A stretch of 64,000 nt of DNA from Christensenellales bacterium (GTDB lineage: Bacteria; Bacillota; Clostridia; Christensenellales; CAG-138): the NCBI GenBank assembly GCA_040767925.1, contig JAXGNN010000001.1, positions 1,240,285 to 1,304,284 on the forward strand, read 5' to 3'. Position 1 is the stretch's first letter, and every line of letters begins with the position of its first letter. Below, in pieces: positions 32,865 through 64,000 of this stretch. The notes beneath the pieces were generated by a model. It saw only the letters and a list, made by a program, of their open reading frames with translations, did not search any database and was not told the DNA's origin. The position numbers and the translations under genes were made by a program.

Positions 32865-32893
32865 TTGAATTCTTGTTTGCGATCGGTTATACT
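32865..32893 (+). promoter_or_regulatory. Sigma-A-like promoter facing the particle operon
   Basis: TTGAAT-17bp-TATACT. Confidence 0.6.
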
Positions 32894-32897
32894 TTTT

Positions 32898-32997
32898 ATG
32901 GTGGGAGGAGCGGCATGCTCCTCCCATAATCTTTGGTCCGTGCCTGCCGCAAAAGGCACCGGCGCGCGCATCCCGACGGGGTGCGTTTTTTCTTTTT
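32898..32997 (+). ncRNA. Putative structured leader or small RNA (three hairpins ending in an intrinsic terminator)
   Basis: TGGGAGGAGC-ggcat-GCTCCTCCCA; GTGCCT-gccgcaaa-AGGCAC; CGCATCCC-gac-GGGGTGCG followed by TTTTTTCTTTTT. Confidence 0.45.
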
Positions 32998-34902: not shown

Positions 34903-34931
34903 AATCGATTTTTCGCCACATCCCTTCGTTT

Positions 34932-34961: not shown

Positions 34962-35034
34962 GCCCTTCGGCGCGAAGCACCCGGAACCGTCCCCGCGAAT
35001 GCAACGGAAACATAATAGAAAGGAAACGCCATAC

Positions 35035-36750: not shown

Positions 36751-36752
36751 AA

Positions 36753-39234: not shown

Positions 39235-39236
39235 GC
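39082..39236 (+). repeat. About 155-bp direct repeat, copy 1 (3' flank of cassette)
   Basis: Near-identical to 40935-41089. Confidence 0.92.
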
Positions 39237-39284
39237 GTGGATGGATGTAGATACGGCAGCCTTGGGAAACCGGGGCTGCCGAAT

Positions 39285-41243: not shown

Positions 41244-41525
41244 ATGGATTATCTCAACGAGAACGAGATCGACAAGATCTCCGGGGACACGGGACGCGCG
41301 CTCGCCGCGCAGAGGAAGGTGAGCATCGTTATCGCACAATCGCCCGACGGCGCGCCGTGGGAGGGCTGCCTCAACGGCTACTTCTTCCGCATCCGGCGCG
41401 GGGTGCCCGTGGAGGTGCCGGAGGCCATCGCGGAATTGATCGGCGAGAACGCGCGCGTCACGGAGCTTGCCAAAGCCGCGATCCGCGAATACAGGGCCGG
41501 GCGCGGCAAAAAGCTCTCGGCGTAA
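41244..41525 (+). CDS. Phage-type hypothetical protein
   Basis: GAGGAGG RBS; LNGYFFRIRRGVPVEVPEAIAELI motif recalls small genes found after N4-gp56-type capsids. Confidence 0.65.
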   Translation: MDYLNENEIDKISGDTGRALAAQRKVSIVIAQSPDGAPWEGCLNGYFFRIRRGVPVEVPEAIAELIGENARVTELAKAAIREYRAGRGKKLSA

Positions 41526-41537
41526 GGAGGGATTGGA

Positions 41538-42083
41538 ATGACGCTCAACGACATCATCGTCTCCGCCCTCGCGCAGCTCGACCGCGGACACGACGCGCAG
41601 ACGCTCGACGTGTGGCGCGACAAGCTCACGCGCTTCGCCAACGACGCTTTGATCGACCTCGCATCCGCGGCGCAGCCGCGAAGAACCGAAACCGCAACGA
41701 TCGCGGGCGGGCGGCTCGACATCGGTGCGCTCGATCGGCCTTGCCTCAAGGTGCTTTTTGTCAGAAAAGACGGAAAAGCCCTCCCCTTCCGCCGCGGGGA
41801 GAACCCGGGCGAGCTCTTTGTCGAAAACGCGGCGGACGGCGAAATTAAAATCACCTACGCCTTCGCGCCGAGGGAGCTTTCCGCCGCGACCGACGTTCCG
41901 GAACTGCCCCTCCCCTGCCACGCGCTGATCGTGACCTACGTCGTGGGGCGCGAGCGCGCCTCGGGCGACGTCTCCGTGCAGCGCGGCGGCAACGTCTACT
42001 TCCAGATGTACGAGGCCGGAAAGCACATGCTTCGCCCCGGCCTCGGCAGCCCCGACGAATACAAAATCGTCAACAGGTGGTGA
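41538..42083 (+). CDS. Putative head-tail adaptor protein
   Basis: MTLNDII start, ITY..P.EL...TD.PELP..CH.LIV.Y pattern of podoviral adaptors; gene position. Confidence 0.6.
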   Translation: MTLNDIIVSALAQLDRGHDAQTLDVWRDKLTRFANDALIDLASAAQPRRTETATIAGGRLDIGALDRPCLKVLFVRKDGKALPFRRGENPGELFVENAADGEIKITYAFAPRELSAATDVPELPLPCHALIVTYVVGRERASGDVSVQRGGNVYFQMYEAGKHMLRPGLGSPDEYKIVNRW

Positions 42084-42088
42084 GGGCG

Positions 42089-43513
42089 ATGTCGGTGAAG
42101 ATTTTCAGGATCGACGAGTTCTACGGCATCGACCAGTCCCGCGACGAGAACGCGATCCCCTTCTCCATGCGCCCCGACGCCTGCAACATGGACACGGAAA
42201 ACGGCGCGCTCGCCGTCGCGAAAGGCTATGCGCGTCACATCCCCGCGCCCGTCCCCGGGGAGGGAGAAATCCACGCGCTGTGCGTCTACGCGAGAAGCGC
42301 GGGCGACATGTTCGTATGCGCCGCGGGCGAGAGCCTCTGCGCGTGGGACGGCGAAAGCTGGCGGGAGGTCTATACCTACGAAGGCGGCCTCGCCCTGCAC
42401 CGCTTCGACTTCGAGCAGGCGCAGATCGGCGGCACGGACTACCTCGTCGTCGGTTGCGGGGAGAGGCGGCTCGTCAAGTTCGACGGGACCTCGGCGACGC
42501 TTTTCGGCAGCAGCGAGGAGGCGAGCGACATCCACGCGCTGTACCTTTCGATGTACCGGGGAAGGCTCTTCGCGGCGGGCGACCCCGATAACCCCAACCG
42601 GCTCTATTGGAGCCAGCTTCCCGGCAGCGGAAGGAGCATCGAATCCTGGGGGCCGGTCGAGGCTTCCCCCAACGTGGAGGGCGGGCACGCGGAAGTGGGC
42701 AGCATCGCGAGCGATCCCATATTGGGCCTCGCCGCGCTCTCCAACCAGCTCGTCATCTTCAAGAAGCACAGCATCTACCGGCTCCTCGGCGACAGGCCCG
42801 GCAACTTCACCATCGAGGAGGTCGATTCCCGCGCCGAGCGCACGGCGAACACGGCCGTGGTCAAATGCGGGGACGCGCTCTATTTCATGACGGCGGGCGG
42901 CATGTGTTGCTTCAACGGCGTGACAGCCGAACCCATGCGGGACGCGCGGCGCATCCGGAACATCCTCGCGGCGGCGGACGTTTCCCGCTCGATGGGCGCG
43001 CTGTGCCGCGACAGGCTATATTTTTCGCTTGAGGACGCGCAGGGCGGCGCGCTCGTGGAATACGACCTCGTGCGCGGGACCTACATGCTGCGGCGCGGCT
43101 TTCACGTACGGGGCCTCGCCGCGCGGGATGGGAAACTCTACCTCGTCGACGCCGCGCGGCACGTCTGCCGCTTCAACGAGGGGGGCACCTACGACGGCGC
43201 GCCGATTTCCGCCTGGTGGCGTACGCCGGAAAGCGACCTTCGCGAGAAAAGCGCCGTCAAGGGAATGCGCGCGCTGTACCTGCGCGGCAATTCCGACGCG
43301 CGCGCGTCCGCGACGCTCGTGGACGTCAAAACGGGCAACATCACGGAAACGCACAGGCTGCTTCTGCCCGAGGGCGGGAGCGCGGTGCTCGAGGTGCCCC
43401 TGAAGAACGAGGGGCGCACGTTCAGCCTTCGCTTCTACAACGAAGCGGGCGGGCATTTTTCCATCAACTCGGGCGCCGAAATCGAATTCGAACAGAAAAG
43501 GAGGACCATCTGA
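42089..43513 (+). CDS. Putative short-tail nozzle/stabilisation protein (beta-propeller-like)
   Basis: F.GID start, C.NMD...GAL, YRGRLF.AG...NRLYWS, LVIFK..SIY motifs, as in P22 gp10/T7 gp12-like proteins. Confidence 0.6.
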   Translation: MSVKIFRIDEFYGIDQSRDENAIPFSMRPDACNMDTENGALAVAKGYARHIPAPVPGEGEIHALCVYARSAGDMFVCAAGESLCAWDGESWREVYTYEGGLALHRFDFEQAQIGGTDYLVVGCGERRLVKFDGTSATLFGSSEEASDIHALYLSMYRGRLFAAGDPDNPNRLYWSQLPGSGRSIESWGPVEASPNVEGGHAEVGSIASDPILGLAALSNQLVIFKKHSIYRLLGDRPGNFTIEEVDSRAERTANTAVVKCGDALYFMTAGGMCCFNGVTAEPMRDARRIRNILAAADVSRSMGALCRDRLYFSLEDAQGGALVEYDLVRGTYMLRRGFHVRGLAARDGKLYLVDAARHVCRFNEGGTYDGAPISAWWRTPESDLREKSAVKGMRALYLRGNSDARASATLVDVKTGNITETHRLLLPEGGSAVLEVPLKNEGRTFSLRFYNEAGGHFSINSGAEIEFEQKRRTI

Positions 43514-43707
43514 TGGCGCTTGACATGCGCGCGCTCTATTACATCGCGCTCGCCGCGCTCGCCGCGGATGCGAACGGCGGGCAGGAATACGAGAAAAACC
43601 GGGCGATCGAAAACTGCCTCAATCAGAACTTCACGATCATGGCGCAGAAGATCGCCGAGCTGGAGGCGCGCCTCAGTTCGGTTGAAAACGCGCTGGGCTC
43701 CCTGTGA
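43513..43707 (+). CDS. Small coiled-coil virion-associated protein
   Basis: TGATG coupling to the upstream gene, GGAGG RBS; LNQNF...KIAELEARL. Confidence 0.55.
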   Translation: MALDMRALYYIALAALAADANGGQEYEKNRAIENCLNQNFTIMAQKIAELEARLSSVENALGSL

Positions 43708-43722
43708 GCGAAAGGAGGAACT

Positions 43723-44619
43723 ATGGCAAGCTATTCTCTCAAAGGTTACGCGACGCCTTCGGGCGTCGACAGCCGCGAGAAGGTCAAGGACTACCAAAGG
43801 ATGCTCGGCGTCACGGCGGACGGCATCTGGGGCCCCGTCACGCAGGCGGCGTACGAGAGGTATAACGCGGGCATATACGGCATGTCCAGCCCGTTCGGCG
43901 CCGCGGGAGACGCGTTCCCGAAATATTACGAGGCCATCCGCGGGATGATCGCCGCGCCGGGCGTTTCGGTGAGCGTCCCCTCCCGCGAGGAGATCGCGCG
44001 GGATTACGCGGAGGCCCTGCGCCCCGGCGTGGACCTCGCGATCCAAACCCGGCGAAGGCGCGGCGAGGAGGCGATGGCCGAGATCGACGCGGACGCGGCC
44101 TCCCGCGGGATGGCGGCCTCCACCTACGTGAGCTCCATGAAGGAGCGCGAGGGGGACGACGTCGAGGGGGACGTGTCCATGATGGAGGCGCAGTATACGG
44201 CGACGCTCGCGGAGCGCATCGCCGCCGCGCTCGAGCATTATTCTTCGCTCGAGTTCGAGGCGGCGCGCACGAACGCGCAGATGGCGCAGAGCGCAGGCAG
44301 CGCCGCGGCGGGCATCGCCATGCAGTGGTACCAGAGCTATCTTAACGGCATGGGCGTCGCGGGCGTCGCGCCCTCGGGCACCTGGGAAGAACCGCGGCTC
44401 TCCCCCGAGGATTATCTCGAATATGTGGCGCTGCTCGGCGCCGCGGGCAGGCGGGAACTGTTCTATTCCCCGTCGGAGGAGTGGGCGAAAAGGCGGGAGG
44501 AGCTCATCGAGGCGCTCGGGCGAGAGCGCTACGAGGCGCTCAAACGCCAGTACGCATACGCGACCGGTTCGGGCGCGACGAGCGCGGGAGGTAGGCTATG
44601 GCAGAACAGCACGAAGTGA
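43723..44619 (+). CDS. Putative internal/ejection virion protein with an N-terminal PG-binding-like DGIWG repeat
   Basis: AAGGAGG RBS; YQRMLGVTADGIWGPVTQAAY; helical body with AASRGM..S motif; sits after the nozzle gene. Confidence 0.55.
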   Translation: MASYSLKGYATPSGVDSREKVKDYQRMLGVTADGIWGPVTQAAYERYNAGIYGMSSPFGAAGDAFPKYYEAIRGMIAAPGVSVSVPSREEIARDYAEALRPGVDLAIQTRRRRGEEAMAEIDADAASRGMAASTYVSSMKEREGDDVEGDVSMMEAQYTATLAERIAAALEHYSSLEFEAARTNAQMAQSAGSAAAGIAMQWYQSYLNGMGVAGVAPSGTWEEPRLSPEDYLEYVALLGAAGRRELFYSPSEEWAKRREELIEALGRERYEALKRQYAYATGSGATSAGGRLWQNSTK

Positions 44620-45725
44620 AGAAGCGCTTTGAAATCGCGCTCGACATCAGCCGCCCCATCTCCAACCGCGCGTTCACGCTCGTCGAGGGGGATACGGGGA
44701 ACGAGCTGATCATCTCCCTCGCCGACGACGGCGAGCCCGTGGACCTCGCGGGCTGCCGCGTGATGGCGCTCTTCTCCAAATCGGACGGGACGACCGTTTC
44801 GCAGGACAGCGGCACCGAACAGAACGGCATAACGCTCGGCGGGGACGCGGGCAACGTGATTTCGATCGATCTTTTCGCCTCCTCTTTCGCGCCCGGCATG
44901 GTGGAGTGCGAGATACAGATCTACTCGGGCGCGGCGCTCGCGACCCTCGTCACAAGCGCGAAGTTCAACTTCCGCTGCCGCAGGAGCATACTCAACGCGG
45001 ACACCATCGCGGCCGTGCCCGAATACCCGCTGTTGACCTCGCTGCTCGCGGACACGATAGCGCTCTCGGCCCAAACCGCCCTGGCGCTGAACGAGGCGCA
45101 GGCGGCCATCGATGCCGCCGGGACGGGCGAGGCCGCGCGGAACGCCGCGGAAGCCGCCCGCGCCGGCGCCGAAGACGCGAGAGGCGCGGCGGAAACGGCG
45201 CGCATCGGCGCGGAAACGGCGCGCGCGGGGGCGGAAATCGCACGCGCGTCGGCCGAGCTTGCGCGCGCGCAAGGCTATCTCGCGCTCGAGAACCGGCTCG
45301 ACGCAGCCATCGGCGACGCGGACGGGCTCGTGGCGGAGCTGGAAGCGGCCGTGGAGACCCTCCCCGAGATCGCGGAAATCTCCGGCATACTCATGGGGGA
45401 CGGCGCGGGCAACGTGCGCGCCGCCGCGGCGAACGCGGATTACTACGAGCCGCCGCTTCGCGCGCATGATCTCAGCGTCGCGACCGGCGCGTGGGCCGAC
45501 GACGCGACCTACGCGGCCTACCCCAAGCGCGCCGCGGTTTTTGTCGCGGGGGCCGCGGCGGACATGGTGCCGGAGGTGACGTTCGCGCTCGCGGACGCCG
45601 TGTCCGGTCTTTTGGCGCCGGTCGCCGAAACGTACGCGGGCGGCGTATATCTCTACGCCGCGGAAACCCCGGCGGCGGTCGTGACGATCAGGACCCTGAC
45701 CTTCTGGAAGGCGGTGGGCGCATGA
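44598..45725 (+). CDS. BppU-like baseplate/fibre protein with coiled-coil repeats
   Basis: EGDTGNEL.I.L.DDGEPVDL.G......FSKSDGT N-domain; AETAR heptads. Confidence 0.7.
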   Translation: MAEQHEVKKRFEIALDISRPISNRAFTLVEGDTGNELIISLADDGEPVDLAGCRVMALFSKSDGTTVSQDSGTEQNGITLGGDAGNVISIDLFASSFAPGMVECEIQIYSGAALATLVTSAKFNFRCRRSILNADTIAAVPEYPLLTSLLADTIALSAQTALALNEAQAAIDAAGTGEAARNAAEAARAGAEDARGAAETARIGAETARAGAEIARASAELARAQGYLALENRLDAAIGDADGLVAELEAAVETLPEIAEISGILMGDGAGNVRAAAANADYYEPPLRAHDLSVATGAWADDATYAAYPKRAAVFVAGAAADMVPEVTFALADAVSGLLAPVAETYAGGVYLYAAETPAAVVTIRTLTFWKAVGA

Positions 45726-46558
45726 TCGGCAGGACGAACGCGACTTCGGGCGGCTCCTCCCTGGTAAAGGGGGGAGCCGTCCTCGCCTCCCACAGCGCGG
45801 GCGCTCCCGGCATGACCGACCGCGGCGTCGTGACGCTCGGCGACGGGAAGCAGTACCGCCTGCTGGAAATCAAGCAGAGCGGGACGCTGAGCTTCAACGC
45901 CGCGCAGCTTAAAAAAGGCATCCGCGCGGATGTCTGCGTCGTAAGCGGCGGGCAGGGCGGCGGACGCGGCGGAGCGAATCACGGCGGCTACGGCGGAAGG
46001 ATGCTCAATCTGTACGGGCTGCTTCTGGACGATTTGAGCGTGGTGATCGGAGCCGGGGGCGCGGGCGCCGCTTCCAGCAATTATGGATCGCTGGGAGGTC
46101 AGTCCACGCTCAGGCGCGCTTCCGACGCGGGCGCCATGGGGCCGATCCCCGGCGTCGGCACAGGCGGCGGCCGGGGAGGCTACTCTTCATCGCAGGGCGC
46201 GTATCAATTTGGCGACGCAATCGGCAAAAAGCCTTTCGACGACGCGTCCTATTTCAGCCCGCATTGCGGCGGCGGAGGCGGCGGCGCGTACAGCCCCGGA
46301 GGCGGCGGCAACTACACGGGCGGCGCGGGCGGGACGAACGGCGGAGACGGCGCGCATCGCATCTCCGTGGGTTCCCCGCAGGGGCAGCCTGGGCCGGCGG
46401 GCGACGCAAGCGCCGGCGCGGGCGGGGCCTACAACGCCGCCGGAGCGGCCGCCTCTTACTATGGCGGCGGCGGAGGCGGCGGCGGATCGAACGGCACCAC
46501 GGACCGGAACGGCGGCAACGGCTATCAGGGCGTCGTCTGGGTCCGGATTCCGGCGTAA
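45722..46558 (+). CDS. Glycine-rich tail-fibre/receptor-binding protein
   Basis: MIGRTNA start coupled to the upstream stop; DVCVVSGGQGGG, VVIGAGGAG, GGGGGG, GYQGVVWVR Gly-rich domain. Confidence 0.7.
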   Translation: MIGRTNATSGGSSLVKGGAVLASHSAGAPGMTDRGVVTLGDGKQYRLLEIKQSGTLSFNAAQLKKGIRADVCVVSGGQGGGRGGANHGGYGGRMLNLYGLLLDDLSVVIGAGGAGAASSNYGSLGGQSTLRRASDAGAMGPIPGVGTGGGRGGYSSSQGAYQFGDAIGKKPFDDASYFSPHCGGGGGGAYSPGGGGNYTGGAGGTNGGDGAHRISVGSPQGQPGPAGDASAGAGGAYNAAGAAASYYGGGGGGGGSNGTTDRNGGNGYQGVVWVRIPA

Positions 46559-46567
46559 GGAGGGAAT

Positions 46568-46801
46568 ATGAAAGCGGCGGTTATCAAAGAAAGTGCGGTC
46601 ACGAACATCATCGTCGCAAAGGAGGAGGTGTACGCCGAGTTGGAAACGGCGCTCGGCGCGCGCCTCGTTTGCGTGGACGGGACGGAGTGCGGCATCGGCT
46701 GGACGACGGAGGACGGCGGGGCGAGCTTCACCGCCCCCGCGTCGGAGCCGGAGGCCGATTATGAACAGATCATCGACATATTGACCGGGGAGGTGGAGTA
46801 G
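46568..46801 (+). CDS. Small tail-fibre-associated phage protein
   Basis: AAGGAGG RBS; A.I....VTNIIV...GIGW.....F..P pattern. Confidence 0.6.
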   Translation: MKAAVIKESAVTNIIVAKEEVYAELETALGARLVCVDGTECGIGWTTEDGGASFTAPASEPEADYEQIIDILTGEVE

Positions 46802-47041
46802 ATGCCCATCCGCACGACCGACGCGGCGCGCGCGTGGCGCGCGGAGCAGCAGCGGGCGTTCGCGGCGCTTCGCGCGCTGCTCGCGCTGCCCGCCTGGGCG
46901 GAGCTCGATTCGGGCGCCGCGATCCCCCTCGGCATGAAGGCGCGCTTTCGCCTGAAAACCTACGAATGCGTGAGCGCGCACGCGAAGGCGCTCGCGAGGT
47001 CCCCGCTCAACGCGGAATTCTGGAAGGAGGTTGCCGAATGA
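46802..47041 (+). CDS. Small phage protein (chitin-binding-like C-terminus)
   Basis: GGAGGTGG RBS; YECVSAH......P.....W motif. Confidence 0.5.
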   Translation: MPIRTTDAARAWRAEQQRAFAALRALLALPAWAELDSGAAIPLGMKARFRLKTYECVSAHAKALARSPLNAEFWKEVAE

Positions 47042-47820
47042 GCAGAACATCGGATTTCATCGCCTGGCTCACGGCGCGGCGGGGCGCGGCCTACGTGTGG
47101 GGCGCGCAGGGGCAGGAGGCGCGTCCCGACGGGAGCGTTATCCTCGACGGGAAGCGCGTTTCCGCCTCGTGGGAAAGCTGGGTGGACGCCCGCGAGAACA
47201 GCGGCGAGAACGCGAGGCGCGCGAAGGAGTATATCAGAAAGCGGCTTGAAGCGGGGGACGGCAACGTCCCCTGCTTCGACTGCAGCGGCCTTCTCATGCG
47301 CTACCTCAAGGACGTCAAGGGCTATTTCCCCGAAGACAAAAGCGCGGCGGGGCTCCTCGCCGCGTGCAAAGAGATCGCAAGGGGCGCGCTCACGCCCGGG
47401 CATCTCCTGTTTCGCCACAACGGCAAAAAGGCGCATCACGTGGGCGTCTACCTCGGGGACGGCCTGGCGATCGAGGCGCAGGGAAGGAGCGCGGGCGTCG
47501 TGATCCGCCCGCTCGACGCGTCCGGCGCAAACTACTGGAACCGCTTCGGCGCGCTCCCCTGCCTCGCTGAAGACGGCGCAAAAGCCGCCCCGAGGCAGAC
47601 CCGCTTCGCCGTATGCGCGGGGGGAAGCGTCAACGTGCGCAAAGCTCCCGGCACGGAACACGCGGCGTTGGCGGTCGCGCACAAGGGCGATCCCATGCTC
47701 TTCCTCCCTTCGGCGGAGAAGGACTGGGGGCAGGTCGCAATTTTCCATGCGGGAGGGCTTGTCACAGGTTACATGCATGTGAAATATATTGATTGTATAG
47801 AGGGAGGCATTGAACAATGA
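47038..47820 (+). CDS. Endolysin: NlpC/P60 peptidase plus SH3b domain
   Basis: YVWGAQG, FDCSGL, HVGVYLGDG, then VNVRKAPGT...W......GYM...YI. Confidence 0.85.
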   Translation: MSRTSDFIAWLTARRGAAYVWGAQGQEARPDGSVILDGKRVSASWESWVDARENSGENARRAKEYIRKRLEAGDGNVPCFDCSGLLMRYLKDVKGYFPEDKSAAGLLAACKEIARGALTPGHLLFRHNGKKAHHVGVYLGDGLAIEAQGRSAGVVIRPLDASGANYWNRFGALPCLAEDGAKAAPRQTRFAVCAGGSVNVRKAPGTEHAALAVAHKGDPMLFLPSAEKDWGQVAIFHAGGLVTGYMHVKYIDCIEGGIEQ

Positions 47821-48293
47821 CTGCAAAAACACTCGAATGGATCAAAGCGGCTTTCGCAACCCTTGGCGGCATCGCCGCGTACCTGTGGGGTCCGTGGGAC
47901 TCCCTGTGCATGACGCTCGTCGCCTTCGTGGCGATCGATTACATCACCGGCATCACCAAAGCTGCCGTCCTCAAACAGCTGGACAGCTCCGTGGGCTTTC
48001 AGGGGCTGCTCAAAAAGCTCTTCATATTCGCCCTCGTTGCGCTCGCCACGATGATCGACCGGATCATCCCCGAGGCGAACAGCGCCATACGCTCCGCGGT
48101 AATGGTGTTCTACATCGCGAACGAAGGGCTGAGCATCCTCGAAAACGCCGGGGAAATGGGGCTTCCGCTGCCCAAAGTGCTCAAGAACGCGCTTCATAAG
48201 CTGGGCGGCTCCGACGAAACGAAGCCCGGTGAAACCGAAGACGCGAAGGCCGGCGAAAACGAGAACAACCAAAACGACGAAAACAAAACGTAA
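47817..48293 (+). CDS. Phage holin (toxin secretion/phage lysis holin family)
   Basis: IDYITG, LDSSVGFQGLLKK, FYIANEGLSILENAGEMGLPLP. Confidence 0.9.
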   Translation: MTAKTLEWIKAAFATLGGIAAYLWGPWDSLCMTLVAFVAIDYITGITKAAVLKQLDSSVGFQGLLKKLFIFALVALATMIDRIIPEANSAIRSAVMVFYIANEGLSILENAGEMGLPLPKVLKNALHKLGGSDETKPGETEDAKAGENENNQNDENKT

Positions 48294-50219: not shown

Positions 50220-52007
50220 TTACTCAAGCACGGCCTTGATCCTGCGCACGCCGGCGCTGGAGGCCTCCTCTTTCTTGATTTTAAAGCTGCCGAGCTCGCC
50301 CGTGCGGGAAGCGTGCGGCCCGCCGCAGATTTCCTTGGAGAAGTTGCCCATGGTGTATACCTTGACGCGCTCGCTGTACTTGTCGCCGAAAAGGCCCATG
50401 GCGCCCTCGGCGCGGGCCTCTTCCACGGACATCTCGACGCAGGTGATCTCAGCGTCCTCCCTGATGGCGGCGTTGACGAGGCGCTCGACCTCTAAGAGCT
50501 CCTCCTCGGTCAGCTTGCGCTCGAAGCTGAAGTCGAAGCGCAGCCTCTCCGCCGTGATGTTGCTGCCCTTCTGCGCGACGCTGTCGCCCAGCACTTTGCG
50601 AAGCGCGGCCTGCAAAAGGTGCGTCGCCGTGTGCAGGCGCGCCGTCTGCTCGCCCGTGTCGGCAAGGCCGCCCTTGAAGCGCTGCTCCGCGCCCGCCTGC
50701 GACTTCCTCTGGTGCTCGGCGAACGCCTCCTCGAAGCCCTTCGCGTCGACCGAAAGGCCGTTTTCCGCGGCCATCTCCTCTGTAAACTCGATGGGGAAGC
50801 CGTAGGTGTCGTAAAGATGGAAGGCGGTGACGCCGTCGATGACGCCGCCGGGGAAGTTGGCCTTCACGCGCTCGAACTCGCGCATGCCGTTTTTGAGCGT
50901 GCGCTGGAAGCGGGCCTCCTCGCGGGAAAGCTCCTCGGTGATTTTATTGCGGTTCTGCTCCAGCTCGGGATACACCTTGCCGTAGCGTTCGATCACGGCC
51001 TCAGCGACGTGCTTCAGGCTGTCCTGCGGCATGTCGAGCTGCATGGCGTAGCGGATGGCGCGGCGGATGAGCCGCCTTAGGATATACCCCTGGTCGATGT
51101 TCGAGGGCGTGACGCCGCGCGGGTCGCCGATGATGAAGCTCGCGCAGCGGACATGGTCCGCGATGATGCGAAAGGCGCGGACGGTCGCGTCGCTGTCCTT
51201 ATAATTCTTCCGGGAAAGCTCCGCGATCCTCGCGATGATGCCGGTAAACGCGTCCGTATCGAACACGCTCTCGGCGCCCTGCAACGTGGCGATCGTGCGG
51301 TCGAGCCCCATGCCGGTGTCGACGTTCTTCTGGGAGAGCGGCTCGAACCTGCCCTCGCCCAGCTTGTTGTATTCCATAAAGACGTTGTTCCAGATTTCAA
51401 GGTACTTCCCGCAGGAGCACGAGGGGTTGCACTCCGCGCAGCACGCGGGCTTGCCCGTGTCGTAGAAGATCTCCGTATCCGGCCCGCAGGGGCCCGTCAT
51501 GCCCGCGGGGCCCCACCAGTTATCCTTCTTGCCGAGGAAGAAGATATGCGCGGGGTCCGCGCCCATCTCGACCCAGCGGTCGTGCGCCGCGACGTCGCGC
51601 GGCGCGTCCGCGTCGCCCGCGAAGCAGGTGAAATAGAGCTTTTCCTTCGGGATGCCGAGCCACTTCTCATCCGTGAGGAACTCCCAGCTCCACGCGATGG
51701 ACTCGCGCTTGAAGTAGTCCCCGAGAGACCAGTTGCCGAGCATCTCGAAGAAGGTGCAGTGCGAGGAATCGCCCACCTCGTCGATGTCGCACGTGCGCAC
51801 GCACTTCTGCACGTCCGCGAGCCTCCTGCCCGCGGGATGCTTCTCGCCCATCAGGTACGGCACGAGGGGGTGCATGCCCGCGGTCGTGAACAGCACCGTG
51901 GGGTCGTTTTCCGGTATGAGCGAAGCCGAGGGGATGATGGCGTGCCCCCGCTCGGCAAAGAATTTAAGGTAGAGCTCGCGAAGCCCGTCCGAGGTCAAGT
52001 TGCGCAT
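50220..52007 (-). CDS. alaS: Alanine--tRNA ligase (short form without C-Ala domain)
   Basis: DPTVLFTTAGM, HCTFFEMLGNWSLGDYFK, VDTGMGLDR, HTATHLL, EICGGPH, GVRRIKA. Confidence 0.96.
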   Translation of the reverse strand: MRNLTSDGLRELYLKFFAERGHAIIPSASLIPENDPTVLFTTAGMHPLVPYLMGEKHPAGRRLADVQKCVRTCDIDEVGDSSHCTFFEMLGNWSLGDYFKRESIAWSWEFLTDEKWLGIPKEKLYFTCFAGDADAPRDVAAHDRWVEMGADPAHIFFLGKKDNWWGPAGMTGPCGPDTEIFYDTGKPACCAECNPSCSCGKYLEIWNNVFMEYNKLGEGRFEPLSQKNVDTGMGLDRTIATLQGAESVFDTDAFTGIIARIAELSRKNYKDSDATVRAFRIIADHVRCASFIIGDPRGVTPSNIDQGYILRRLIRRAIRYAMQLDMPQDSLKHVAEAVIERYGKVYPELEQNRNKITEELSREEARFQRTLKNGMREFERVKANFPGGVIDGVTAFHLYDTYGFPIEFTEEMAAENGLSVDAKGFEEAFAEHQRKSQAGAEQRFKGGLADTGEQTARLHTATHLLQAALRKVLGDSVAQKGSNITAERLRFDFSFERKLTEEELLEVERLVNAAIREDAEITCVEMSVEEARAEGAMGLFGDKYSERVKVYTMGNFSKEICGGPHASRTGELGSFKIKKEEASSAGVRRIKAVLE

Positions 52008-52166: not shown

Positions 52167-53084
52167 ATGAAAGTACGCGCATACAGGGGCTTTCGCAGCC
52201 CCAAGGACAGGAAAAAACGCAGGTTCAGCCCCATCACCTTCCGCGGAGAGGAGGGCAGGACGCCCCGGCGGGTGCTCTTCACCGCGCTCGGCGCCGCGTT
52301 GCTGCTCGTCGTGCTCATCGCGACGCGCTCCGAGCCCGCGCTGATGAACAGCGCGGAGGTCGCGACGGTTTGGGACAGGGGCGTGCTGCGCGTGGGCGTG
52401 CGCGCGGACATGCCCGGCATGGCCATGGACGGCGAGGGGCTTGAAATCGAGCTCGCGCGCCTGCTCGCCGAGCGGATCATGCGCGCGGACAATTCCTGGC
52501 CGGGCGGGCAGCCGGTGGAACTCGTGCCTGTGAACGCCATGAGCGTCGCGGCGAAGCTCTCCGACGGCAGCATAGACGCCGCCGTCTGCCTCATGCCCGC
52601 AAACGCGTATTCCGGATACGCGTACTCCCGCGCGTACTATACGGACACGATCCATTTCCTCACGCGCGCGGGCGAGAAGGGGACGCCGATCCAAAACATC
52701 AAAATCGGCTGCCTCCAGTCGGCGAGCGGCACGAGCCTGTACGTCCCCTCGGGCGCCGTCTACAACGCGCTCGCGGCCTACGTCGAGGCGCACCCGGACG
52801 ACGGGCTTGCGGAAAGCATCGTCGCATACGCCTCCTACGAGGATCTGTTCCGCGGTCTTCTCGCGGGCGAAGTCGCGGCCGTCGCGCTCGACGGGCTGAC
52901 GCTTGGGAAATACAGGGACAGCTACGCCTTCGAGGTGAGCCCCGCAACCGTCGGCAGCGTCAGCTACGCGATCGCCTGCCTCAACGAGGCCTCCGCGATC
53001 GCCTCCATCGCCGACATGATGCTCTCCGACATGGAATCGGACGGCACGCTCGCCTCGCTGAAAGAAAAATACGGATTGAACTGA
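52167..53084 (+). CDS. Amino-acid ABC-type substrate-binding domain protein (family 3)
   Basis: N-terminal TM; RGVLRVGV, GLEIELARLLA, L.DGSIDA, DGTLASLKEKYGL. Confidence 0.75.
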   Translation: MKVRAYRGFRSPKDRKKRRFSPITFRGEEGRTPRRVLFTALGAALLLVVLIATRSEPALMNSAEVATVWDRGVLRVGVRADMPGMAMDGEGLEIELARLLAERIMRADNSWPGGQPVELVPVNAMSVAAKLSDGSIDAAVCLMPANAYSGYAYSRAYYTDTIHFLTRAGEKGTPIQNIKIGCLQSASGTSLYVPSGAVYNALAAYVEAHPDDGLAESIVAYASYEDLFRGLLAGEVAAVALDGLTLGKYRDSYAFEVSPATVGSVSYAIACLNEASAIASIADMMLSDMESDGTLASLKEKYGLN

Positions 53085-53179
53085 TCTATTGGCTTAAAAT
53101 TTACACGGCGCCCAAAATGCAAAAATCGAATTTGAATCCCGAAAACGGTACTTAGGTGCCGTTTTCGCCTTTTTGGCCG

Positions 53180-53235
53180 TTGCCCGGGCCCGTCCGGCGT
53201 GATAGAATGCGCCTACAAACACGAACATATATTCT
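53180..53235 (+). promoter_or_regulatory. Sigma-A promoter with a downstream LexA (Cheo) box-like operator
   Basis: TTGCCC-17bp-TAGAAT (TG-extended), then CGAAC-ATAT-ATTC at 53222-53234, one mismatch to GAAC-N4-GTTC. Confidence 0.65.
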
Positions 53236-53256
53236 ATTTTTAGGAGGAAACAGAAG

Positions 53257-53787
53257 ATGAAAAGAAAGGATTACGGCATCGAGAACATGATGGTGCTGCC
53301 GGAGACGCGCTCCGCGCGCGGGCGGAACAGCCATGTGGTCACGCGCGAGGAGGCGCGCTCGGCCGCCTACGCCGCGACGGAACGCCGCCTCCATCAGATG
53401 AAGCTCATCCGCGCCCGCATCGAGGACGCGAAGGAGGAGCTTGCGGAACTGGAGAACCTGGGCGTCGAGGCGCTGCGGGAGCACTCCTCGTCGCTCGTGC
53501 GCCTCCTCCGCCCCGGCATGCGCCTCGATCCCGAGGAGGTGCACGCCGCGCAGATGGCCTACCTGCGCTCCCGCCTCGCGGCGGACGAGCGCGAGATCCG
53601 CAAGATGACCGTGGCCATGGAGTGCGTCAAGGACGACCCGTACTTCCCAGCCCTCGACATGCGCTACGCGCGCGGCATGACGGACGCAGAGATCGCCGAA
53701 AAGCTCGCCTGCGACAAGACCACCGTCGCCCGCCACAGGAAGATGCTCGTCAGGGACCTCTCCGTGCGGCTCTACGGGGTGATCTAG
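53257..53787 (+). CDS. ArpU/RinA-like phage late-gene activator (sigma-70 region 4-type HTH)
   Basis: Coiled coil plus C-terminal MRY..GMTDAEIAEKLACDKTTVARHRKMLV..L...LYG; AGGAGG RBS. Confidence 0.7.
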   Translation: MKRKDYGIENMMVLPETRSARGRNSHVVTREEARSAAYAATERRLHQMKLIRARIEDAKEELAELENLGVEALREHSSSLVRLLRPGMRLDPEEVHAAQMAYLRSRLAADEREIRKMTVAMECVKDDPYFPALDMRYARGMTDAEIAEKLACDKTTVARHRKMLVRDLSVRLYGVI

Positions 53788-53788
53788 C

Positions 53789-55135
53789 ATGTGCGCGACG
53801 CTCCTTCTTCGCGGCGCGCCCAACCCGCGGCAGGCGGAGTTCTTCGTCTCGGGCGCGCGGCACACGGCCTACGGCGGCGCGCGCGGCGGCGGCAAAAGCT
53901 GGGCCATGCGAAGGAAGCTCGTGCTCCTTGCGCTGGCGACGCCGGAGTTGAACGCGCTGCTCATCCGGCGCACGCTCCCGGAGCTTCGCGAGAACCATTT
54001 AATCCCGCTCATGCGGGAGCTTGCGGGCGCCGCCCGCTACAACGCGAGCGAGCGCGTGTTCCGCTTCCCCAACGGCGCGCGGCTGCGCCTTGGCTACTGC
54101 GACGGGCAAAACGACGTCTATCAGTATCAGGGGCAGGAGTACGACGCCATCGGCATGGAGGAGGCCACGCACTTCACCGAGGAGCAGATGCGCTTCCTCA
54201 CCACCTGCAACCGCACCGTCAAACACGGTTTCCGCCCCAGGATGTACTACACCTGCAACCCCGGCAACGTGGGCCACGGCTGGGTCAAGCGGCTGTTCAT
54301 CGACCGCCTCTACGAGAACGGCGAGCGCCCCGAGGACTACCGCTTCATCCCCGCGCGGGTGTGGGACAACAAAGTTCTTCTCGCGGCCGACCCGGACTAC
54401 GTCCGCGCGCTCGAGAGCCTGCCGGAGGATTTGCGCCGCGCCTACCTCGACGGGGACTGGGACGTACACGCGGGTCAGTATTTCAGGGAGTTCTCGCGGC
54501 AGAGGCACGTCGTCGAGCCCTTCGAGCTCCCGCTATGGTGGAAGCGCTTCCGCTCCATGGACTGGGGCTACAACGACCCCTGCTGCGTGCTGTGGCACGC
54601 CGCGGACGGCGACGGACGCGTCTATACCTACCGCGAGCTGTATGTGCGCGCCGTGCGGGCGGACGAGGTCGCCGCGCGCGTGCGCGCCCTCTCGGAGGGC
54701 GAGAAGATCGCCTACACCGTGGCGAGCCCGGACATGTGGCAGAAGCGCGGCGCGGTGCTGAAGGCGGAGGGGGGCTTCGAAGGGGAGAGCATCGCGGAGC
54801 TGTTCGCGAAGTCCGGCGTGCCCCTCACGCCCGCGGACAACGCGCGCGTGGCGGGCTGGCAGCGGGTGAGGAGCTACCTCGCTTTGGCACAGGACGGCCT
54901 GCCGCTCTGGCAGGTGTTTGCCGGCTGCGGGGAACTCATCCGCACGCTCCCCATGCTCACCTATTCCCGGCACGACCGCGAGGACGCGGCGGACGGGGAC
55001 GACCACGCGCCGGAGGCGCTGCGCTACGCGCTCATGTCCCGCCCGCGCCGCAGCGCCGCGCCCGGGGAGGCGGTCAGGCGCGCCTACGACCCACTCTCGA
55101 TCGGGGCGCAGACAAGGGATTTCATGAATCGGTAA
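53789..55135 (+). CDS. Terminase large subunit
   Basis: PNPRQ adenine motif, YGGARGGGKS Walker A, YQGQEYDAIGMEEATHF Walker B, YTCNPG, SMDWGYNDP and DHAPEALRY nuclease motifs. Confidence 0.93.
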   Translation: MCATLLLRGAPNPRQAEFFVSGARHTAYGGARGGGKSWAMRRKLVLLALATPELNALLIRRTLPELRENHLIPLMRELAGAARYNASERVFRFPNGARLRLGYCDGQNDVYQYQGQEYDAIGMEEATHFTEEQMRFLTTCNRTVKHGFRPRMYYTCNPGNVGHGWVKRLFIDRLYENGERPEDYRFIPARVWDNKVLLAADPDYVRALESLPEDLRRAYLDGDWDVHAGQYFREFSRQRHVVEPFELPLWWKRFRSMDWGYNDPCCVLWHAADGDGRVYTYRELYVRAVRADEVAARVRALSEGEKIAYTVASPDMWQKRGAVLKAEGGFEGESIAELFAKSGVPLTPADNARVAGWQRVRSYLALAQDGLPLWQVFAGCGELIRTLPMLTYSRHDREDAADGDDHAPEALRYALMSRPRRSAAPGEAVRRAYDPLSIGAQTRDFMNR

Positions 55136-55157
55136 ATCATAAAAGGAGGATATTGAA

Positions 55158-56747
55158 ATGAACAAGGCCGAACAGACGCGCGTTGAAAGGCTCTACGCGC
55201 TTTTTGAGGAATACCGAAACGCCTACGCCGCGGAGTGGGAGCGGCTCGACAAATGCGAGCGCCTCTACCGCGGCGCGCACTGGGAGGATGTGCCCGTGAA
55301 GGACGCGAACGAGCCGCGCCCCGTGACGCCCATCATCCAATCCACGGTGGAGAACATCCGCGCGGACCTCATGGATCAGCTTCCCGAGGCGGTCGTCACC
55401 GCCGACGCGCCGGAAAACGGCGCGGTCGCCGAGGCGCTCACGGCGCTCCTCGCCGAAAACCACCGCAGGGGCCGCTTCGAGAAGGAATACGCGAACCTGC
55501 TGCACGACCTCGCCGTGGGCGGTTACATGGTGATGGAAACGGGCTACGACGAGAGCGAGAACAACGGCCTCGGCGCGGCGTTCATCCGCCACGCGGACGC
55601 GCACAACGTGCTCTTCGACCCGCTTGCGGCGGACATACAGGATTCCCGCGCCGTCTTCAAGCTCGCCCCCTATCCCGAGGAATGGTTCCGCGCGCATTTT
55701 TCCAAAAAGTTTGAGGAGATGGTTTCCGATCCCGTGACGATCGTGCCGCGGCGCGACGGATACCTCAACCGCGGCAACGGGAACGAACTGCTCCTTCTCG
55801 AGTGCTGGGAGCGCGAGTACGACCCCGAACTTCGCATCCATCGCGTGCACATGGCGAAGCTCGCGGGCGGCGTACTGCTCGAGGACAGCCGGGAGCTGAA
55901 GCCCGAGGGCTATTTCGCGCACGGGCGCTACCCGTTCGTCGTGACGCCGCTCTTCACGAGGAAGGGCACCGCGCTCGGCTACGGCTTCGCGGACATGTTC
56001 GAAACGCAGCAGCGCTACTCCGACAAGCTCGACCAGATCATTTTAAAAAACGCGCTCATGGCCTCGCACAACAAGCTCCTTGTCACGGGCGCTTCCGGCT
56101 TCGACGTGGACGACCTTCGCGACTGGTCGCGCGAGGTGCACCGAGGGGACAGCCTCGGCGGCGTGACGTGGTTCCCCACCCCTCCCCTGCCCGCCTACGT
56201 CGCGGGCTTCGCCCGCGCCATCCGCGACGGCGTAAAGGAGGAATCCGGCGCGACGGACTTCTCCCGCGGGGAGACCTACGGCGGCGTGACGGCGGCGGCC
56301 GCCATCGCCGCGCTGCAGGAGGCCTCCGGCAAGCGCGCGCGCATGGTGGCGCGCGTGGCGCACGGCGCGTTCGAGGAGGCGGTGCGCATGGAAATCGAGG
56401 TGGAGCGCGAGTTCTGCGCCTTCCCGCGGACGGTGAAGCTGCAGAACGGCAAAACGGCCTCCTTCTCGGGCGAGGACATGTACGTTCTCACGGGGCTCAA
56501 AAACCGCCTGCCCATCGAATTCGCCGTCACCGTGAAGGCGCAGCGCGAGAACCGCTTCACGGTTGCCGCGCACAACGAAACCGTCATGGGGCTCGTGCGC
56601 CTCAATATGATTTCGCCGGACGTCGGCCTCGAGCTCATGATGTTCGAGGGTAAGCGGCAGGCGCTCGACATGATGAAGCGCAGGACGGCCGCAATGGGCA
56701 GCCAGTTGACCGCAAACCGGCCGACGGAATCGCCGGGTGCGTTTTAG
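55158..56747 (+). CDS. Portal protein (P22/podovirus-like)
   Basis: Follows TerL; LYRGAHW...PIIQSTVEN, LFDP.A.DIQD, LLECW, YPFV, SGA.DFSRG....GVTAAAAIAALQEA. Confidence 0.82.
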   Translation: MNKAEQTRVERLYALFEEYRNAYAAEWERLDKCERLYRGAHWEDVPVKDANEPRPVTPIIQSTVENIRADLMDQLPEAVVTADAPENGAVAEALTALLAENHRRGRFEKEYANLLHDLAVGGYMVMETGYDESENNGLGAAFIRHADAHNVLFDPLAADIQDSRAVFKLAPYPEEWFRAHFSKKFEEMVSDPVTIVPRRDGYLNRGNGNELLLLECWEREYDPELRIHRVHMAKLAGGVLLEDSRELKPEGYFAHGRYPFVVTPLFTRKGTALGYGFADMFETQQRYSDKLDQIILKNALMASHNKLLVTGASGFDVDDLRDWSREVHRGDSLGGVTWFPTPPLPAYVAGFARAIRDGVKEESGATDFSRGETYGGVTAAAAIAALQEASGKRARMVARVAHGAFEEAVRMEIEVEREFCAFPRTVKLQNGKTASFSGEDMYVLTGLKNRLPIEFAVTVKAQRENRFTVAAHNETVMGLVRLNMISPDVGLELMMFEGKRQALDMMKRRTAAMGSQLTANRPTESPGAF

Positions 56748-57077
56748 GTAGGGGCGGATTCCATATCCGCCCGGTTCTTTCCGGATCCGGGGACAGTTCC
56801 GCGCGACAGAGGGTGATATTCCTTCGAGCGGGAGCGCCGCTATAAGGAAGCGGCAAGCGACGAAACCCGCCGCAGGACTGTTCCCGCCGCACCGAACCCC
56901 GCCGCGGGTGAGGGTTTCATTTCCTCTCGGGTCGCCGGGGACAGTTCTGCCCTTTTTCGCCCATCCATCTTCCTGACGGCGTCTTACGGGTTCCGTCGCA
57001 CAGCGCCCTCCCGCACGCAGAACCGTCCCCGAAACGCATACGAAAGCGGCCCTCGCTTTTCAGCGGAGGCCGCTCTT
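56748..57077. repeat. Cluster of REP-like palindromes
   Basis: GTAG-GGGCGGATT-cc-ATATCCGCCC; cggggacagttc twice and cagaaccgtcccc; terminal hairpin at 57042-57077. Confidence 0.6.
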
Positions 57078-57106: not shown

Positions 57107-58288
57107 TTACGCGCGGACCTTTTTGACGGTCACGACCGCGGCGGCGGCGAGCGCGAGAACGATCATCGCGAAGCCGACCACGGTGGAAGCGTCACCGGTC
57201 TGCGGGGGCGCGACCGACGGGTTTACGACGGCCGGATAGCCCGCTGGGAAGACGACGGTCGCCTTGTTGGAGAATTTCGGGAGAAGGTTCGCGATGATGA
57301 GTTCCTCGTTCATATACTTGACGGAGCCGTCCCACTTGAAGCCGAGCGAGCCCATGAAGAAGTCGTACATCTCCTTGAGATCGGCATAATCGTCGTCCCC
57401 CTCCTGGACGGAGACGCCGAGGGCTTTAAACGCGATCCTGCCGTTCGCGTCGAGGAACACCTGGTAAGGGGGGGTTTCCTCGAGGAAGGAGAAGAGGCTT
57501 CCAAGGAAGATGCGTTGGATCTTATCGTTGTCGTCGACGTCGAAAATCAGCGCGTACGGCTCTTCACCCATAACCAGATACTGACCCATAAACATATACT
57601 CGCCGAATTCCGTTAAGTCGGCAAACGTATAGGCCGCTACGAGCACTTTGGACTGATAGATGTAGAGCGGATTGGGGGGTATAACGGCAGAGGCGGCAAG
57701 CTGCGGCTGCTCCTGGTTCATGCTCCACAGGCCGGTCTTGAGGGAAACCTCCACGCTCGCGACGACCTCCTTGTCCGACGCGGCGGCGAACACGAACATG
57801 GCCTCGATATCCACGGGCTTATCTTCGAGCCAAACCGGGAAACTGACGCTGAACACGTTCTTGTCTGCCGGGTCGAGCGGGTTGAGCGCGGGATAGTAGT
57901 TCACATCGTCAGCCAGCAAGTCGACCTCCGCGACGGCCTTCACGTTGGTGATGGTGTAGGTCACCGTCAGCATGATGTACTCGAACAGCACATCCGGGTA
58001 GAGCGCCTGTGCGTCGTCGTACGAAGGAAGCGTCACCTGGAAATGCACGCGGCCGAGCGTGTCCTTCACGATGCCCTTCTTATCGTCCCACTTGGCGAAA
58101 TACCTGCCGTCCGCGGCATAGCCGGAAGAAGCGGAGGCGTAATACTCATACTTCTCGGCGCTGAGGACAAAGTCCTCATAATCCCCGGGTTTGGGCTCGG
58201 GCTTGTCCCAGCCGGAGGCGGCGAGCGCGGGCAAAGCGAGCGCGAAGGCCATGGCGAACACCAGGATGGCGGCAAAGATCCTCTTCAT
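57107..58288 (-). CDS. Secreted cell-wall-anchored surface protein, paralog A
   Basis: Signal peptide MKRIFAAILVFAMAFALALPALA; C-terminal PPQTGD plus hydrophobic stretch plus KKVRA sorting signal. Confidence 0.8.
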   Translation of the reverse strand: MKRIFAAILVFAMAFALALPALAASGWDKPEPKPGDYEDFVLSAEKYEYYASASSGYAADGRYFAKWDDKKGIVKDTLGRVHFQVTLPSYDDAQALYPDVLFEYIMLTVTYTITNVKAVAEVDLLADDVNYYPALNPLDPADKNVFSVSFPVWLEDKPVDIEAMFVFAAASDKEVVASVEVSLKTGLWSMNQEQPQLAASAVIPPNPLYIYQSKVLVAAYTFADLTEFGEYMFMGQYLVMGEEPYALIFDVDDNDKIQRIFLGSLFSFLEETPPYQVFLDANGRIAFKALGVSVQEGDDDYADLKEMYDFFMGSLGFKWDGSVKYMNEELIIANLLPKFSNKATVVFPAGYPAVVNPSVAPPQTGDASTVVGFAMIVLALAAAAVVTVKKVRA

Positions 58289-63350: not shown

Positions 63351-64000
63351 CAGACCAAGTGCAACAGCAGTAGGGGAAAAAGGGAGTGACCCAGGAGGCA
63401 AGGCCTTGTAAAATGGGAGTTGCAAGACAAACCATAACAAGGAGGCGCCCGATGGATCACTACAGACATCTTAGCACAAAAGAACGAGAGATCACAATGG
63501 TTGAGCAAGGGAAAGCGATGAGCGTGCGGGCGATCGCCCGCACGCTTGGGCGCAGCCCGTCGACCATCAGCCGGGAGCTTCGCCGGAATCAAAACCGGGA
63601 CGGCAGCTACAGCGCGTCCGCTGCAAACATCAGTTATTTGAAGCGGCGCGCTGCCTGCCATCGGCCAAGTATTTTCGCGAACCAAACAGCAAGAGCATAT
63701 GTAGAAGAACTGATTAAGCGGAAATGGTCGCCGGAACAGATCGCGGGCCGGGCGAAGCTGGACGGATATCCGATACCGTTTTCATACAGCAGCATATATA
63801 GAGGGATCGACCACAAGCTCATTGCGCTGACGGACAAGCACGACCTGCGGCTCAAATGGCATTACAAGCGACGAAAGGCGCGTAAGCTGACCAAATGGGA
63901 GAACGTTACCGGAATTCACGAACGCCCGGAAGAGGTGAACGCCCGTACCCAGTTCGGGCATTGGGAAAGCGATACCGTGCTTGGCCAAAGGAAAACAGGC
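63351..64000 (+). mobile_element. IS30-family insertion sequence (left part)
   Basis: Composition switch at about 63351 (cagaccaagtgcaacagc); transposase ORF follows; exact left end uncertain. Confidence 0.8.
63452..64000 (+). CDS. IS30-family transposase (runs off the window)
   Basis: MDHYRHLSTKERE...SVRAIARTLGRSPSTISRELRRN, WSPEQIAGR, IHERPEEVNAR..FGHWESDTV; AAGGAGG RBS. Confidence 0.92.
   Translation, partial: MDHYRHLSTKEREITMVEQGKAMSVRAIARTLGRSPSTISRELRRNQNRDGSYSASAANISYLKRRAACHRPSIFANQTARAYVEELIKRKWSPEQIAGRAKLDGYPIPFSYSSIYRGIDHKLIALTDKHDLRLKWHYKRRKARKLTKWENVTGIHERPEEVNARTQFGHWESDTVLGQRKTG

Follow-up and report, generated by a model that had tools for sequence, protein, structure and literature searches.

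In a 64,000-nucleotide stretch of contig JAXGNN010000001.1 from a Christensenellales bacterium (hereafter "the window"), a palindrome resembling the LexA box of Firmicutes lies just 3′ of the −10 element of the promoter of ACT, our name for a small putative regulator gene followed by the genes of a large terminase subunit (TerL) and a portal protein. We interpret this site as the version, in this strain, of an ancestral LexA operator, which would gate ACT within a vertically inherited element resembling a gene transfer agent (GTA), a reading to which we give a probability of about 0.7. Its parts differ in strength: that the box represents an ancestral LexA operator is very probable, and that it still represses in this strain is slightly favoured. 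LexA binding, SOS induction, the role of ACT and the production of particles are what we infer from the DNA sequence.

A LexA box in front of ACT

The promoter of ACT (+ strand, 53180..53208) is of the sigma-A type, with a TTGCCC −35 hexamer (53180-53185), a 17-nt spacer and a TAGAAT −10 hexamer (53203-53208), ahead of which a TG at 53200-53201 forms an extended −10. It was read from the sequence, and the same TTGCCC-17-TAGAAT arrangement was listed independently by a consensus promoter scan. Between the −10 element and the ribosome-binding site (RBS) of ACT, CGAACATATATTC (53222-53234) departs from the Cheo-box consensus CGAAC-RNRY-GTTC only by an A for G at 53231, and agrees with it at the remaining 11 core and flank positions and in its ATAT spacer. 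The whole LexA (Cheo) box, CGAACATATATTCT (53222..53235, no strand assigned; core 53223-53234), is supported by matrix score and orthology; its core starts 15 nt past the −10 hexamer, so that it overlaps the promoter/initial transcribed region, at roughly +8 to +19 of the predicted transcript. An AGGAGG RBS (+ strand, 53242..53247) follows, 9 nt before the ATG at 53257. All of this reads as described in an earlier, sequence-only reading of the window, which had pointed out the promoter, a box with one mismatch (the A instead of G at 53231) and then the AGGAGG.

Both lexA and recA were found in the source genome, and their promoters carry AGAACAAGTGTTTG and AGAACATATGTTAT, with one core mismatch each. 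Since a plain scan of the genome for GAAC-N4-GTTC was uninformative (27 perfect sites, about the number expected by chance, and 782 with one mismatch), we used a family matrix and orthologous promoters instead. The matrix (18 nt, symmetrised) was built from 42 lexA/recA promoter boxes of 60 same-family genomes, with the source genome excluded. On this matrix, whose training sites were picked by their likeness to GAAC-N4-GTTC and on which AT-richness supplies part of the site's score in a genome of 60% GC, the window site scored 15.4 bits, compared with 15.3 for the genome's own recA box and 20.4 for its own lexA box, just under the lower quartile of the training sites (quartiles 16.5, 20.7 and 22.4 bits). 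Only 17 18-mers of the 2.71-Mb genome reached at least 15.3 bits, among which the window site ranked 15th, and the expectation of such a score in an 80-nt window is ~5e-4. The sequence-only reading had proposed scoring the site with a matrix built from recA and lexA promoters, and by that measure it stands level with the genome's own recA box. In the same genome, a perfect GAAC-N4-GTTC palindrome of 19.2 bits was observed ~20 nt 5′ of clpB (G000 C2:36696-36713), which may be due to chance or may serve a different repressor that recognises a similar palindrome.

Conservation at orthologous promoters, a second check that had been proposed, was observed in two samples. Of 60 other family genomes, 20 have a single ACT homolog each, and a box of at least 12.4 bits lies between promoter and RBS in 15 of the 18 homologs with a placeable start codon, including ACT genes unlinked to TerL. 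A TerL profile search of a species-genome collection returned more than 381 relatives, of which the best 80 loci were analysed (TerL identity 54–90%, with one exception at least 63%; the groups named in record titles are mostly Christensenellaceae, Christensenellales, Candidatus Pelethousia or similar). ACT adjoins TerL in 35 of these loci, co-directionally in 17 and divergently in 18, and a LexA box lies 26–90 nt 5′ of ACT in all 35, in either gene orientation (30 perfect GAAC-N4-GTTC, five with one mismatch), counts that do not represent independent events, as the related genomes are kin and four or five of the 35 loci share their records with the family sample. Across the best 80 loci, 39 boxes fell within 5,250 nt of ACT-upstream sequence compared to 13 in the remaining 838,745 nt, i.e., box density at ACT is ~480-fold above that of the rest of these 844 kb; nine of the 13 other boxes sit at most 370 nt 5′ of TerL.

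The position of the box is conserved as well, and this orthology argues most strongly against a chance match. The five closest ACT relatives (81–90% identical) have perfect boxes 30–33 nt before the start codon, compared with 34 nt in the window, and when the window is aligned with the six closest promoters, the −35 (GTTGC), the −10 (TAnAAT) and the box are in register. In relatives more generally, the box is found just past the −10, as in the window, or between −35 and −10. Boxes are not confined to ACT: among the 45 of the best 80 loci without an adjacent ACT, three have a box 5′ of TerL, on the TerL promoter itself, which suggests that the SOS wiring of the element arose or moved more than once. 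At L182 (5630-5845), L184 (5725-5915) and L149 (5899-5916), where TerL has no ACT beside it, the TerL promoter has two or three canonical LexA boxes next to or across its −35/−10.

ACT and the element it belongs to

ACT (+ strand, 53257..53787) encodes 176 amino acids, for which a helical hairpin and a C-terminal, sigma-region-4-like helix-turn-helix (HTH) of three helices are predicted (model with a predicted local distance difference test score of 82). It matched the phrog_36 "transcriptional regulator" family over nearly its full length (1.9e-9), along with weak C-terminal matches to Sigma70_r4_2 (0.0032, and at best 2.2e-6 among 35 ACT members), GerE and HTH_23, and one to TIGR02937 under its cut-off (5e-4). 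Since phrog_36 was matched by 35/35 members and a terminase family, small terminases included, by none, ACT is best taken as a regulator rather than a small terminase subunit (TerS); 11 members additionally matched phrog_248 ("transcriptional activator"), and the hhalign probability of ACT against gp3-type TerS was 0.7%. The sequence-only reading had named an activator ahead of terminase and portal; the gene does belong to a phage transcription-regulator family and is directly followed by TerL and portal, with the box preceding all three. Models of RinA/ArpU in Pfam and NCBIfam gave no ACT match at the thresholds used, Foldseek against PDB returned nothing at E ≤ 0.001, a VIA-align wide comparison yielded only generic helical-hairpin matches (Z ≤ 7.7), and a PDB sequence search nothing relevant. 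All 86 ACT homologs are named hypothetical protein at the source. The ratio of non-synonymous to synonymous substitution rates (dN/dS) of ACT is 0.12–0.30. ACT looks to be a previously uncharacterised family of sigma-region-4-like regulators.

TerL (+ strand, 53789..55135; Terminase_6N 1.5e-14, phrog_979 3.7e-52) starts 2 nt past the ACT stop codon and is followed by a portal gene of the P22/SU10 type (+ strand, 55158..56747; P22_portal 1.1e-17, phrog_156 3.5e-45), after which a terminator-like hairpin from the terminator scan (+ strand, 56752..56772) closes the ACT-TerL-portal unit. The other structural genes are also on the + strand, and comprise a scaffold-like gene (33055-33627), the first structural gene of the capsid operon, an N4-gp56-type major capsid gene (33697-34902; TIGR04387 1.2e-67), and a set of adaptor, virion and tail, NlpC/P60 hydrolase and holin genes (41244..48293; SU10_adaptor, BppU_N, Gly_rich_2, NLPC_P60 and Phage_holin_4_1, with synteny in relatives). 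The sequence-only reading had taken a phage repressor to be absent, and among the ORFs (open reading frames) scanned at 33-57 kb, neither a repressor nor an integrase or replication module was matched. The likeness to tailocins that had been drawn does not hold, as head, portal and terminase genes are all present. Judged by its genes, the element is a podovirus-like, rearranged, GTA-like set of Christensenellales-type Clostridia.

Several lines of evidence indicate vertical inheritance. A capsid homolog was detected in 54/60 family genomes, nearly always as a single match, and the RraB-like, AlaS-like and solute-binding-protein neighbours of ACT, TerL and portal recur in several genera. Synonymous divergence (dS) of the three genes equals that of the flanking AlaS-like gene (0.48–0.58 compared with 0.58 for L119, the closest relative), and their dN/dS is 0.09–0.30 against close relatives. 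Given this synteny, the near-ubiquity of the capsid, dS equal to that of the flanks and low dN/dS, the element is vertically inherited under purifying selection, i.e., domesticated.

Gene order is nonetheless much rearranged among genomes. Across 30 capsid loci examined, all from kin genomes, the contiguous ancestral portal-scaffold-capsid order was retained in 14/16 loci of ACT-less genomes, whereas the capsid operon was detached from the portal in 13/14 loci of ACT-bearing genomes, an association that may reflect a single event. Distant relatives carry a P22 gp3-type TerS before TerL, and the ACT profile gave one match and four blanks in five genomes of distant TerL loci, such that the elements of those four genomes must be regulated otherwise.

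The detached scaffold-capsid operon has its own promoter, TTGAAT-17-TATACT (+ strand, 32865..32893; sequence and promoter scan), followed by a leader (+ strand, 32901..32986; terminator scan) with a 12-bp hairpin at 32901-32927 and an intrinsic terminator with a T-run at 32966-32986. By eye, the same leader layout precedes the capsid operon in most of 11 ACT-bearing genomes, and a promoter, a short leader and one or two terminators likewise precede TerL in divergent loci. An extra terminator-like hairpin before the adaptor-to-holin genes was seen by eye and is absent from the terminator scan listing, and the promoter scan placed no + strand promoter between that hairpin and the first of these genes. 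Overall, the combination of consensus-like promoters and leader terminators hints at antitermination in the late operons. Some late promoters of relatives carry further motifs: a LexA box of their own between −35 and −10 (15.9–20.1 bits) in 4 of 11 capsid-operon promoters, and in other relatives 11-bp-phased GTGCA-type repeats 5′ of the capsid −35.

GTGCA/TGCA-like motifs are also found 5′ of ACT. In the window, a conserved upstream block, CCCAAAATGCAAAAATCG (+ strand, 53111..53128), whose columns are almost invariant when aligned with the six closest promoters, includes a TGCA motif that recurs in relatives 5′ of ACT and of late promoters. TGCA averages 1.8–1.9 copies per 250 nt 5′ of ACT and of capsid operons in ACT-bearing genomes, compared to 0.93 5′ of TerL without an adjacent ACT. 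This enrichment is too weak for TGCA to be taken as a binding site, and an 11-bp phased array is present even at L160, a locus without ACT. Between the conserved block and the promoter, a 12-bp hairpin with a T-run (+ strand, 53140..53167; terminator scan), conserved in position, with a GGTAC-type palindrome retained there in relatives, probably terminates the solute-binding-protein gene that precedes it.

Additional features were observed around the capsid promoter. In L201 (109-189), which belongs to the same genus as the window, ~7 (6.9) copies of the 11-bp unit GCGCACATTTT lie just 5′ of the capsid-operon promoter, and the helical phasing of this array suggests a protein-binding or DNA-bending function; its counterpart in the window (32744-32767) amounts to 2.3 degenerate copies. 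The capsid leaders of the window (32901-32986) and of L201, L208, L210, L214, L221 and L224 combine one or two intrinsic terminators with a block GCCnGCCG(A/C)AA, for which RNAalifold proposed three pairs and no compensatory change (motif GCCnGCCGaAA), and Rfam returned no family at 32400-33200 with E-values up to 1. Several relatives also show, a few bases past the −10 of the capsid operon, the start of what may be a short leaderless ORF.

Proposed control of the element and alternative explanations

Under the LexA reading, a LexA dimer sitting on the box would block RNA polymerase at the ACT promoter in undamaged cells. DNA damage would then free this promoter through RecA-stimulated self-cleavage of LexA, leading in the source genome to a single transcript of ACT, large terminase and portal, after which ACT would turn on the detached capsid, tail and lysis genes. 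Since the late promoters look constitutive but carry leader terminators, ACT would most likely do so as an activator or antiterminator. A bolder and rather doubtful extension would see this as a lineage-wide two-step wiring, with LexA acting on ACT and ACT opening terminator-closed late operons by antitermination, the gain of ACT coinciding with the break-up of the ancestral operon, and the window strain being an operator-down mutant that may make particles without damage. The sequence-only reading had host LexA gating the activator and packaging genes directly; this is supported by the orthologous boxes, their enrichment and vertical inheritance, and is qualified by the mutated inner G (see below) and by the capsid-to-lysis genes lying elsewhere.

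A series of observations weighs against the LexA reading. A one-mismatch match by itself means little, and the genes 3′ of 20 good-looking intergenic sites in the genome are nearly all non-SOS genes (ClpB, cysE, dnaX, trpS, valS, oppA-like), with RecD2 as the sole repair-related one; to this are added the likeness-based choice of training sites and the kinship of the genomes counted above. Three of the 18 evaluated family homologs of ACT (L038, L042 and L044) have no box. For two of these genomes, lexA was likewise unmatched at E ≤ 1e-30, yet the link between box and lexA is loose, as the box is present in G002 (80% complete), for which no lexA was matched either. Only ACT, TerL and portal are behind the boxed promoter, with the capsid-to-lysis genes ~20 kb away, and the capsid promoter of the window has no good LexA box, only a 5.6-bit remnant. 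The best Foldseek matches of ACT, to sigma-4 domains of extracytoplasmic function sigma factors, are insignificant (E ≥ 0.5). Finally, the single mismatch of the window hits the otherwise invariant inner G of ACT boxes.

The inner C/G is retained by 80/84 reference half-sites and by 70/70 of those that the other ACT boxes contribute. When the window is aligned with the six closest promoters, no other row has an A in place of the G at 53231. When contigs from public runs were compared with 52900-56800, a G at this position was found in contigs of two DNA runs from two other studies (sludge and digester metagenomes, depth 14 and 2.7), representing strains ~98% identical to the window. The A is thus either strain-specific or an assembly error, and the box is best described as an apparently ancestral operator, weakened or mis-called in this assembly: LexA control may be weakened here and, if the base call is real, predicted repression is probably weaker than in relatives. 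Groban et al. are said to have found in 2005 that the GAAC/GTTC core of B. subtilis operators is critical. As a further point against binding, surface plasmon resonance with C. difficile LexA detected no stable binding to a set of sites including GAAC....ATTT (PMC4234289). That site has two departures, and may serve only as a hint that binding here is poor.

The strongest alternative would be an operator that no longer functions in this strain, the G-to-A change abolishing LexA binding and leaving ACT, TerL and portal constitutive, leaky or otherwise governed, with the box as a fossil. It is an appreciable but minority possibility. The change falls on a position kept in 150/154 half-sites, near-identical strains keep the G, and the C. 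difficile sites with an A at this place were in the set lacking stable binding. In addition, metatranscriptome contigs of two runs from one study map to parts of ACT, TerL and portal (13 and 11 of 30 bins covered, the uncovered ones being uninformative), one of them spanning 53254-53418 with a sequence identical to the window; these samples had no known DNA-damaging treatment, and the contigs provide a weak hint of in situ transcription, as DNA carry-over is possible. Conversely, the site's matrix score is still level with that of the recA box, its other core, flank and spacer positions fit the consensus, the recA and lexA boxes of the genome themselves each have a core mismatch, and the A itself may be an assembly error.

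Two other explanations fit the data less well. ACT could be the TerS of the element, with LexA gating packaging directly and the other operons being controlled by their own boxes or other means, as could be argued from its co-directional abutment to TerL in 17/35 loci (2 nt from stop to start in the window), from the gp3-type TerS found at that place in distant relatives, and from the relatives with LexA boxes of their own on capsid or TerL promoters. No gp3-type TerS (PF16677) was matched in the source genome either, but the control search matched none of the control genomes. We consider this TerS reading improbable, since all 35 ACT proteins match phage transcription-regulator families and none a terminase family, their HTH is C-terminal and sigma-region-4-like, they show no profile similarity to gp3-type TerS, and ACT is divergent from TerL in 18/35 loci and unlinked in several genomes; moreover, late operons that begin with leader terminators would need a regulator. 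The match could also be a chance AT-rich sequence of the 5′ untranslated region, or be bound by a regulator other than LexA, as the abundance of one-mismatch sites, the chance-level number of perfect ones and the many good-looking sites before non-SOS genes might suggest. Against the positional orthology with perfect boxes in every close relative, the enrichment at ACT promoters and a motif identical to that on family lexA and recA promoters, such an explanation is very hard to sustain.

Taken together, the LexA reading suggests that this lineage may make gene-transfer-like particles upon DNA damage. A conserved LexA box on a dedicated regulator would offer a concrete, testable trigger for GTA-like packaging and, if true, DNA damage, including that caused by antibiotics and other SOS inducers, would raise particle output and gene transfer in gut and digester anaerobes. 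The leaders with terminators form a set testable for antitermination, and the single-base operator variant a natural control.

Comparison with known systems and neighbouring genes

The closest known system to the element is FpGTA. FpGTA I/II of Faecalibacterium prausnitzii comprises a split podovirus-like gene set yielding ~40 nm particles with ~9 kb pieces of host DNA, and GTA-type packaging was also seen in Christensenellaceae, a group named in many record titles among the relatives of the present element, GTA-like packaging of host DNA being common in gut Clostridia (PMC12946183). Set beside FpGTA by gene content, the element shares TerL, portal, scaffold, major capsid, tail, holin and endolysin genes, chromosomal inheritance and separate operons. 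In contrast, it is split between portal and scaffold, with host genes between its parts, has ACT and a LexA box, and is known here from genes alone. Regulation of FpGTA was left untreated, with neither "LexA" nor "promoter" occurring in the text (0 times each; PMC12946183). New here are the operator on the regulator of a Firmicute FpGTA-like element, found lineage-wide, the uncharacterised ACT family and the terminator-bearing late leaders; a search of a limited literature collection returned no description of LexA boxes on a Firmicute GTA-like element.

Individual parts of the proposed circuit have precedents among Firmicutes. LexA represses the sigma-A promoter PsigN1 of the sigma factor SigN (ZpdN) on B. 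subtilis plasmid pBS32 and DNA damage derepresses it (PMC6751061). In both cases, a LexA-repressed sigma-A promoter would drive the gene of a small sigma-like factor that governs phage-like or plasmid genes, and the autoactivation reported for SigN would be possible for ACT too, given the TGCA repeats 5′ of it. SigN is, however, a demonstrated sigma factor, whose regulon seems to exclude prophage structural genes (PMC6751061), whereas ACT is only weakly sigma-region-4-like and the late promoters here are sigma-A-like with leader terminators. PBSX of B. subtilis is likewise a defective, SOS-inducible, host-DNA-packaging element of a Firmicute, with the small sigma-like factor gene Xpf just 5′ of the terminase genes, and TerL matches the PBSX-family terminase model TIGR01547 under its cut-off. 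PBSX is myovirus-like, has an Xre repressor and carries its LexA site at xkdA rather than xpf. Here, in contrast, the ORFs scanned yielded no repressor gene, and it is the putative activator gene that carries the box.

Small regulators of the RinA/ArpU/LtrC type also lie 5′ of terminase genes in Gram-positive phages and are needed for late transcription of packaging, morphogenesis and lysis genes (PMC3753634, PMC3152322). ACT occupies the same place just 5′ of terminase, unlike them in its LexA box; there, the activator is under a lytic cascade. Direct control by host LexA of an element without its own repressor, as proposed here, has been described for GIL01 of Bacillus thuringiensis, which is silenced by host LexA and not by a CI-type repressor via SOS boxes in its own promoters (PMC4551915, PMC6182141); GIL01 differs as a replicating temperate tectivirus that needs the co-factor gp7 and a LexA-like late activator. 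Outside of Firmicutes, in the alphaproteobacteria, RcGTA of Rhodobacter capsulatus is also tied to the SOS regulator and a dedicated activator. There, LexA acts indirectly via CckA and is required for production, and the activator GafA has sigma-like DNA-binding regions (PMC9638019), as opposed to a LexA operator directly on the regulator promoter here, implying repression.

Between the parts of the element, 5′ of ACT, we found host-type genes for a solute-binding protein, an AlaS-like protein, an RraB-like protein and a DnaC-like ATPase, and 3′ of the portal two paralogous cell-wall-anchored proteins on the other strand followed by metabolic genes; Rfam listed no family at 34000-58000 at its gathering threshold. 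The AlaS-like gene (− strand, 50220-52007; 595 amino acids), which looks shorter than a standard alanyl-tRNA synthetase gene, adjoins the element in several genera. The paralogs after the portal (− strand, 57107-58288 and 58520-59683; ~390 amino acids) have a signal peptide and an NPXTG/LPXTG-type anchor, and L119 keeps both at 37–40% identity.

Between the capsid and adaptor genes, a low-GC block (34930-41087; 37–58% GC, compared with ~65% around it) contains six ORFs missed by the codon-usage gene caller. An N-terminal stretch of the first of these is also present in the virion protein at 43723-44619, and homologs of several follow the portal gene in another genus (L047/L124); these ORFs may encode fibre or receptor-binding proteins of the element that are exchanged horizontally. 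An IS30-type transposase gene (HTH_38; 63386-64000) is cut off by the edge of the window.

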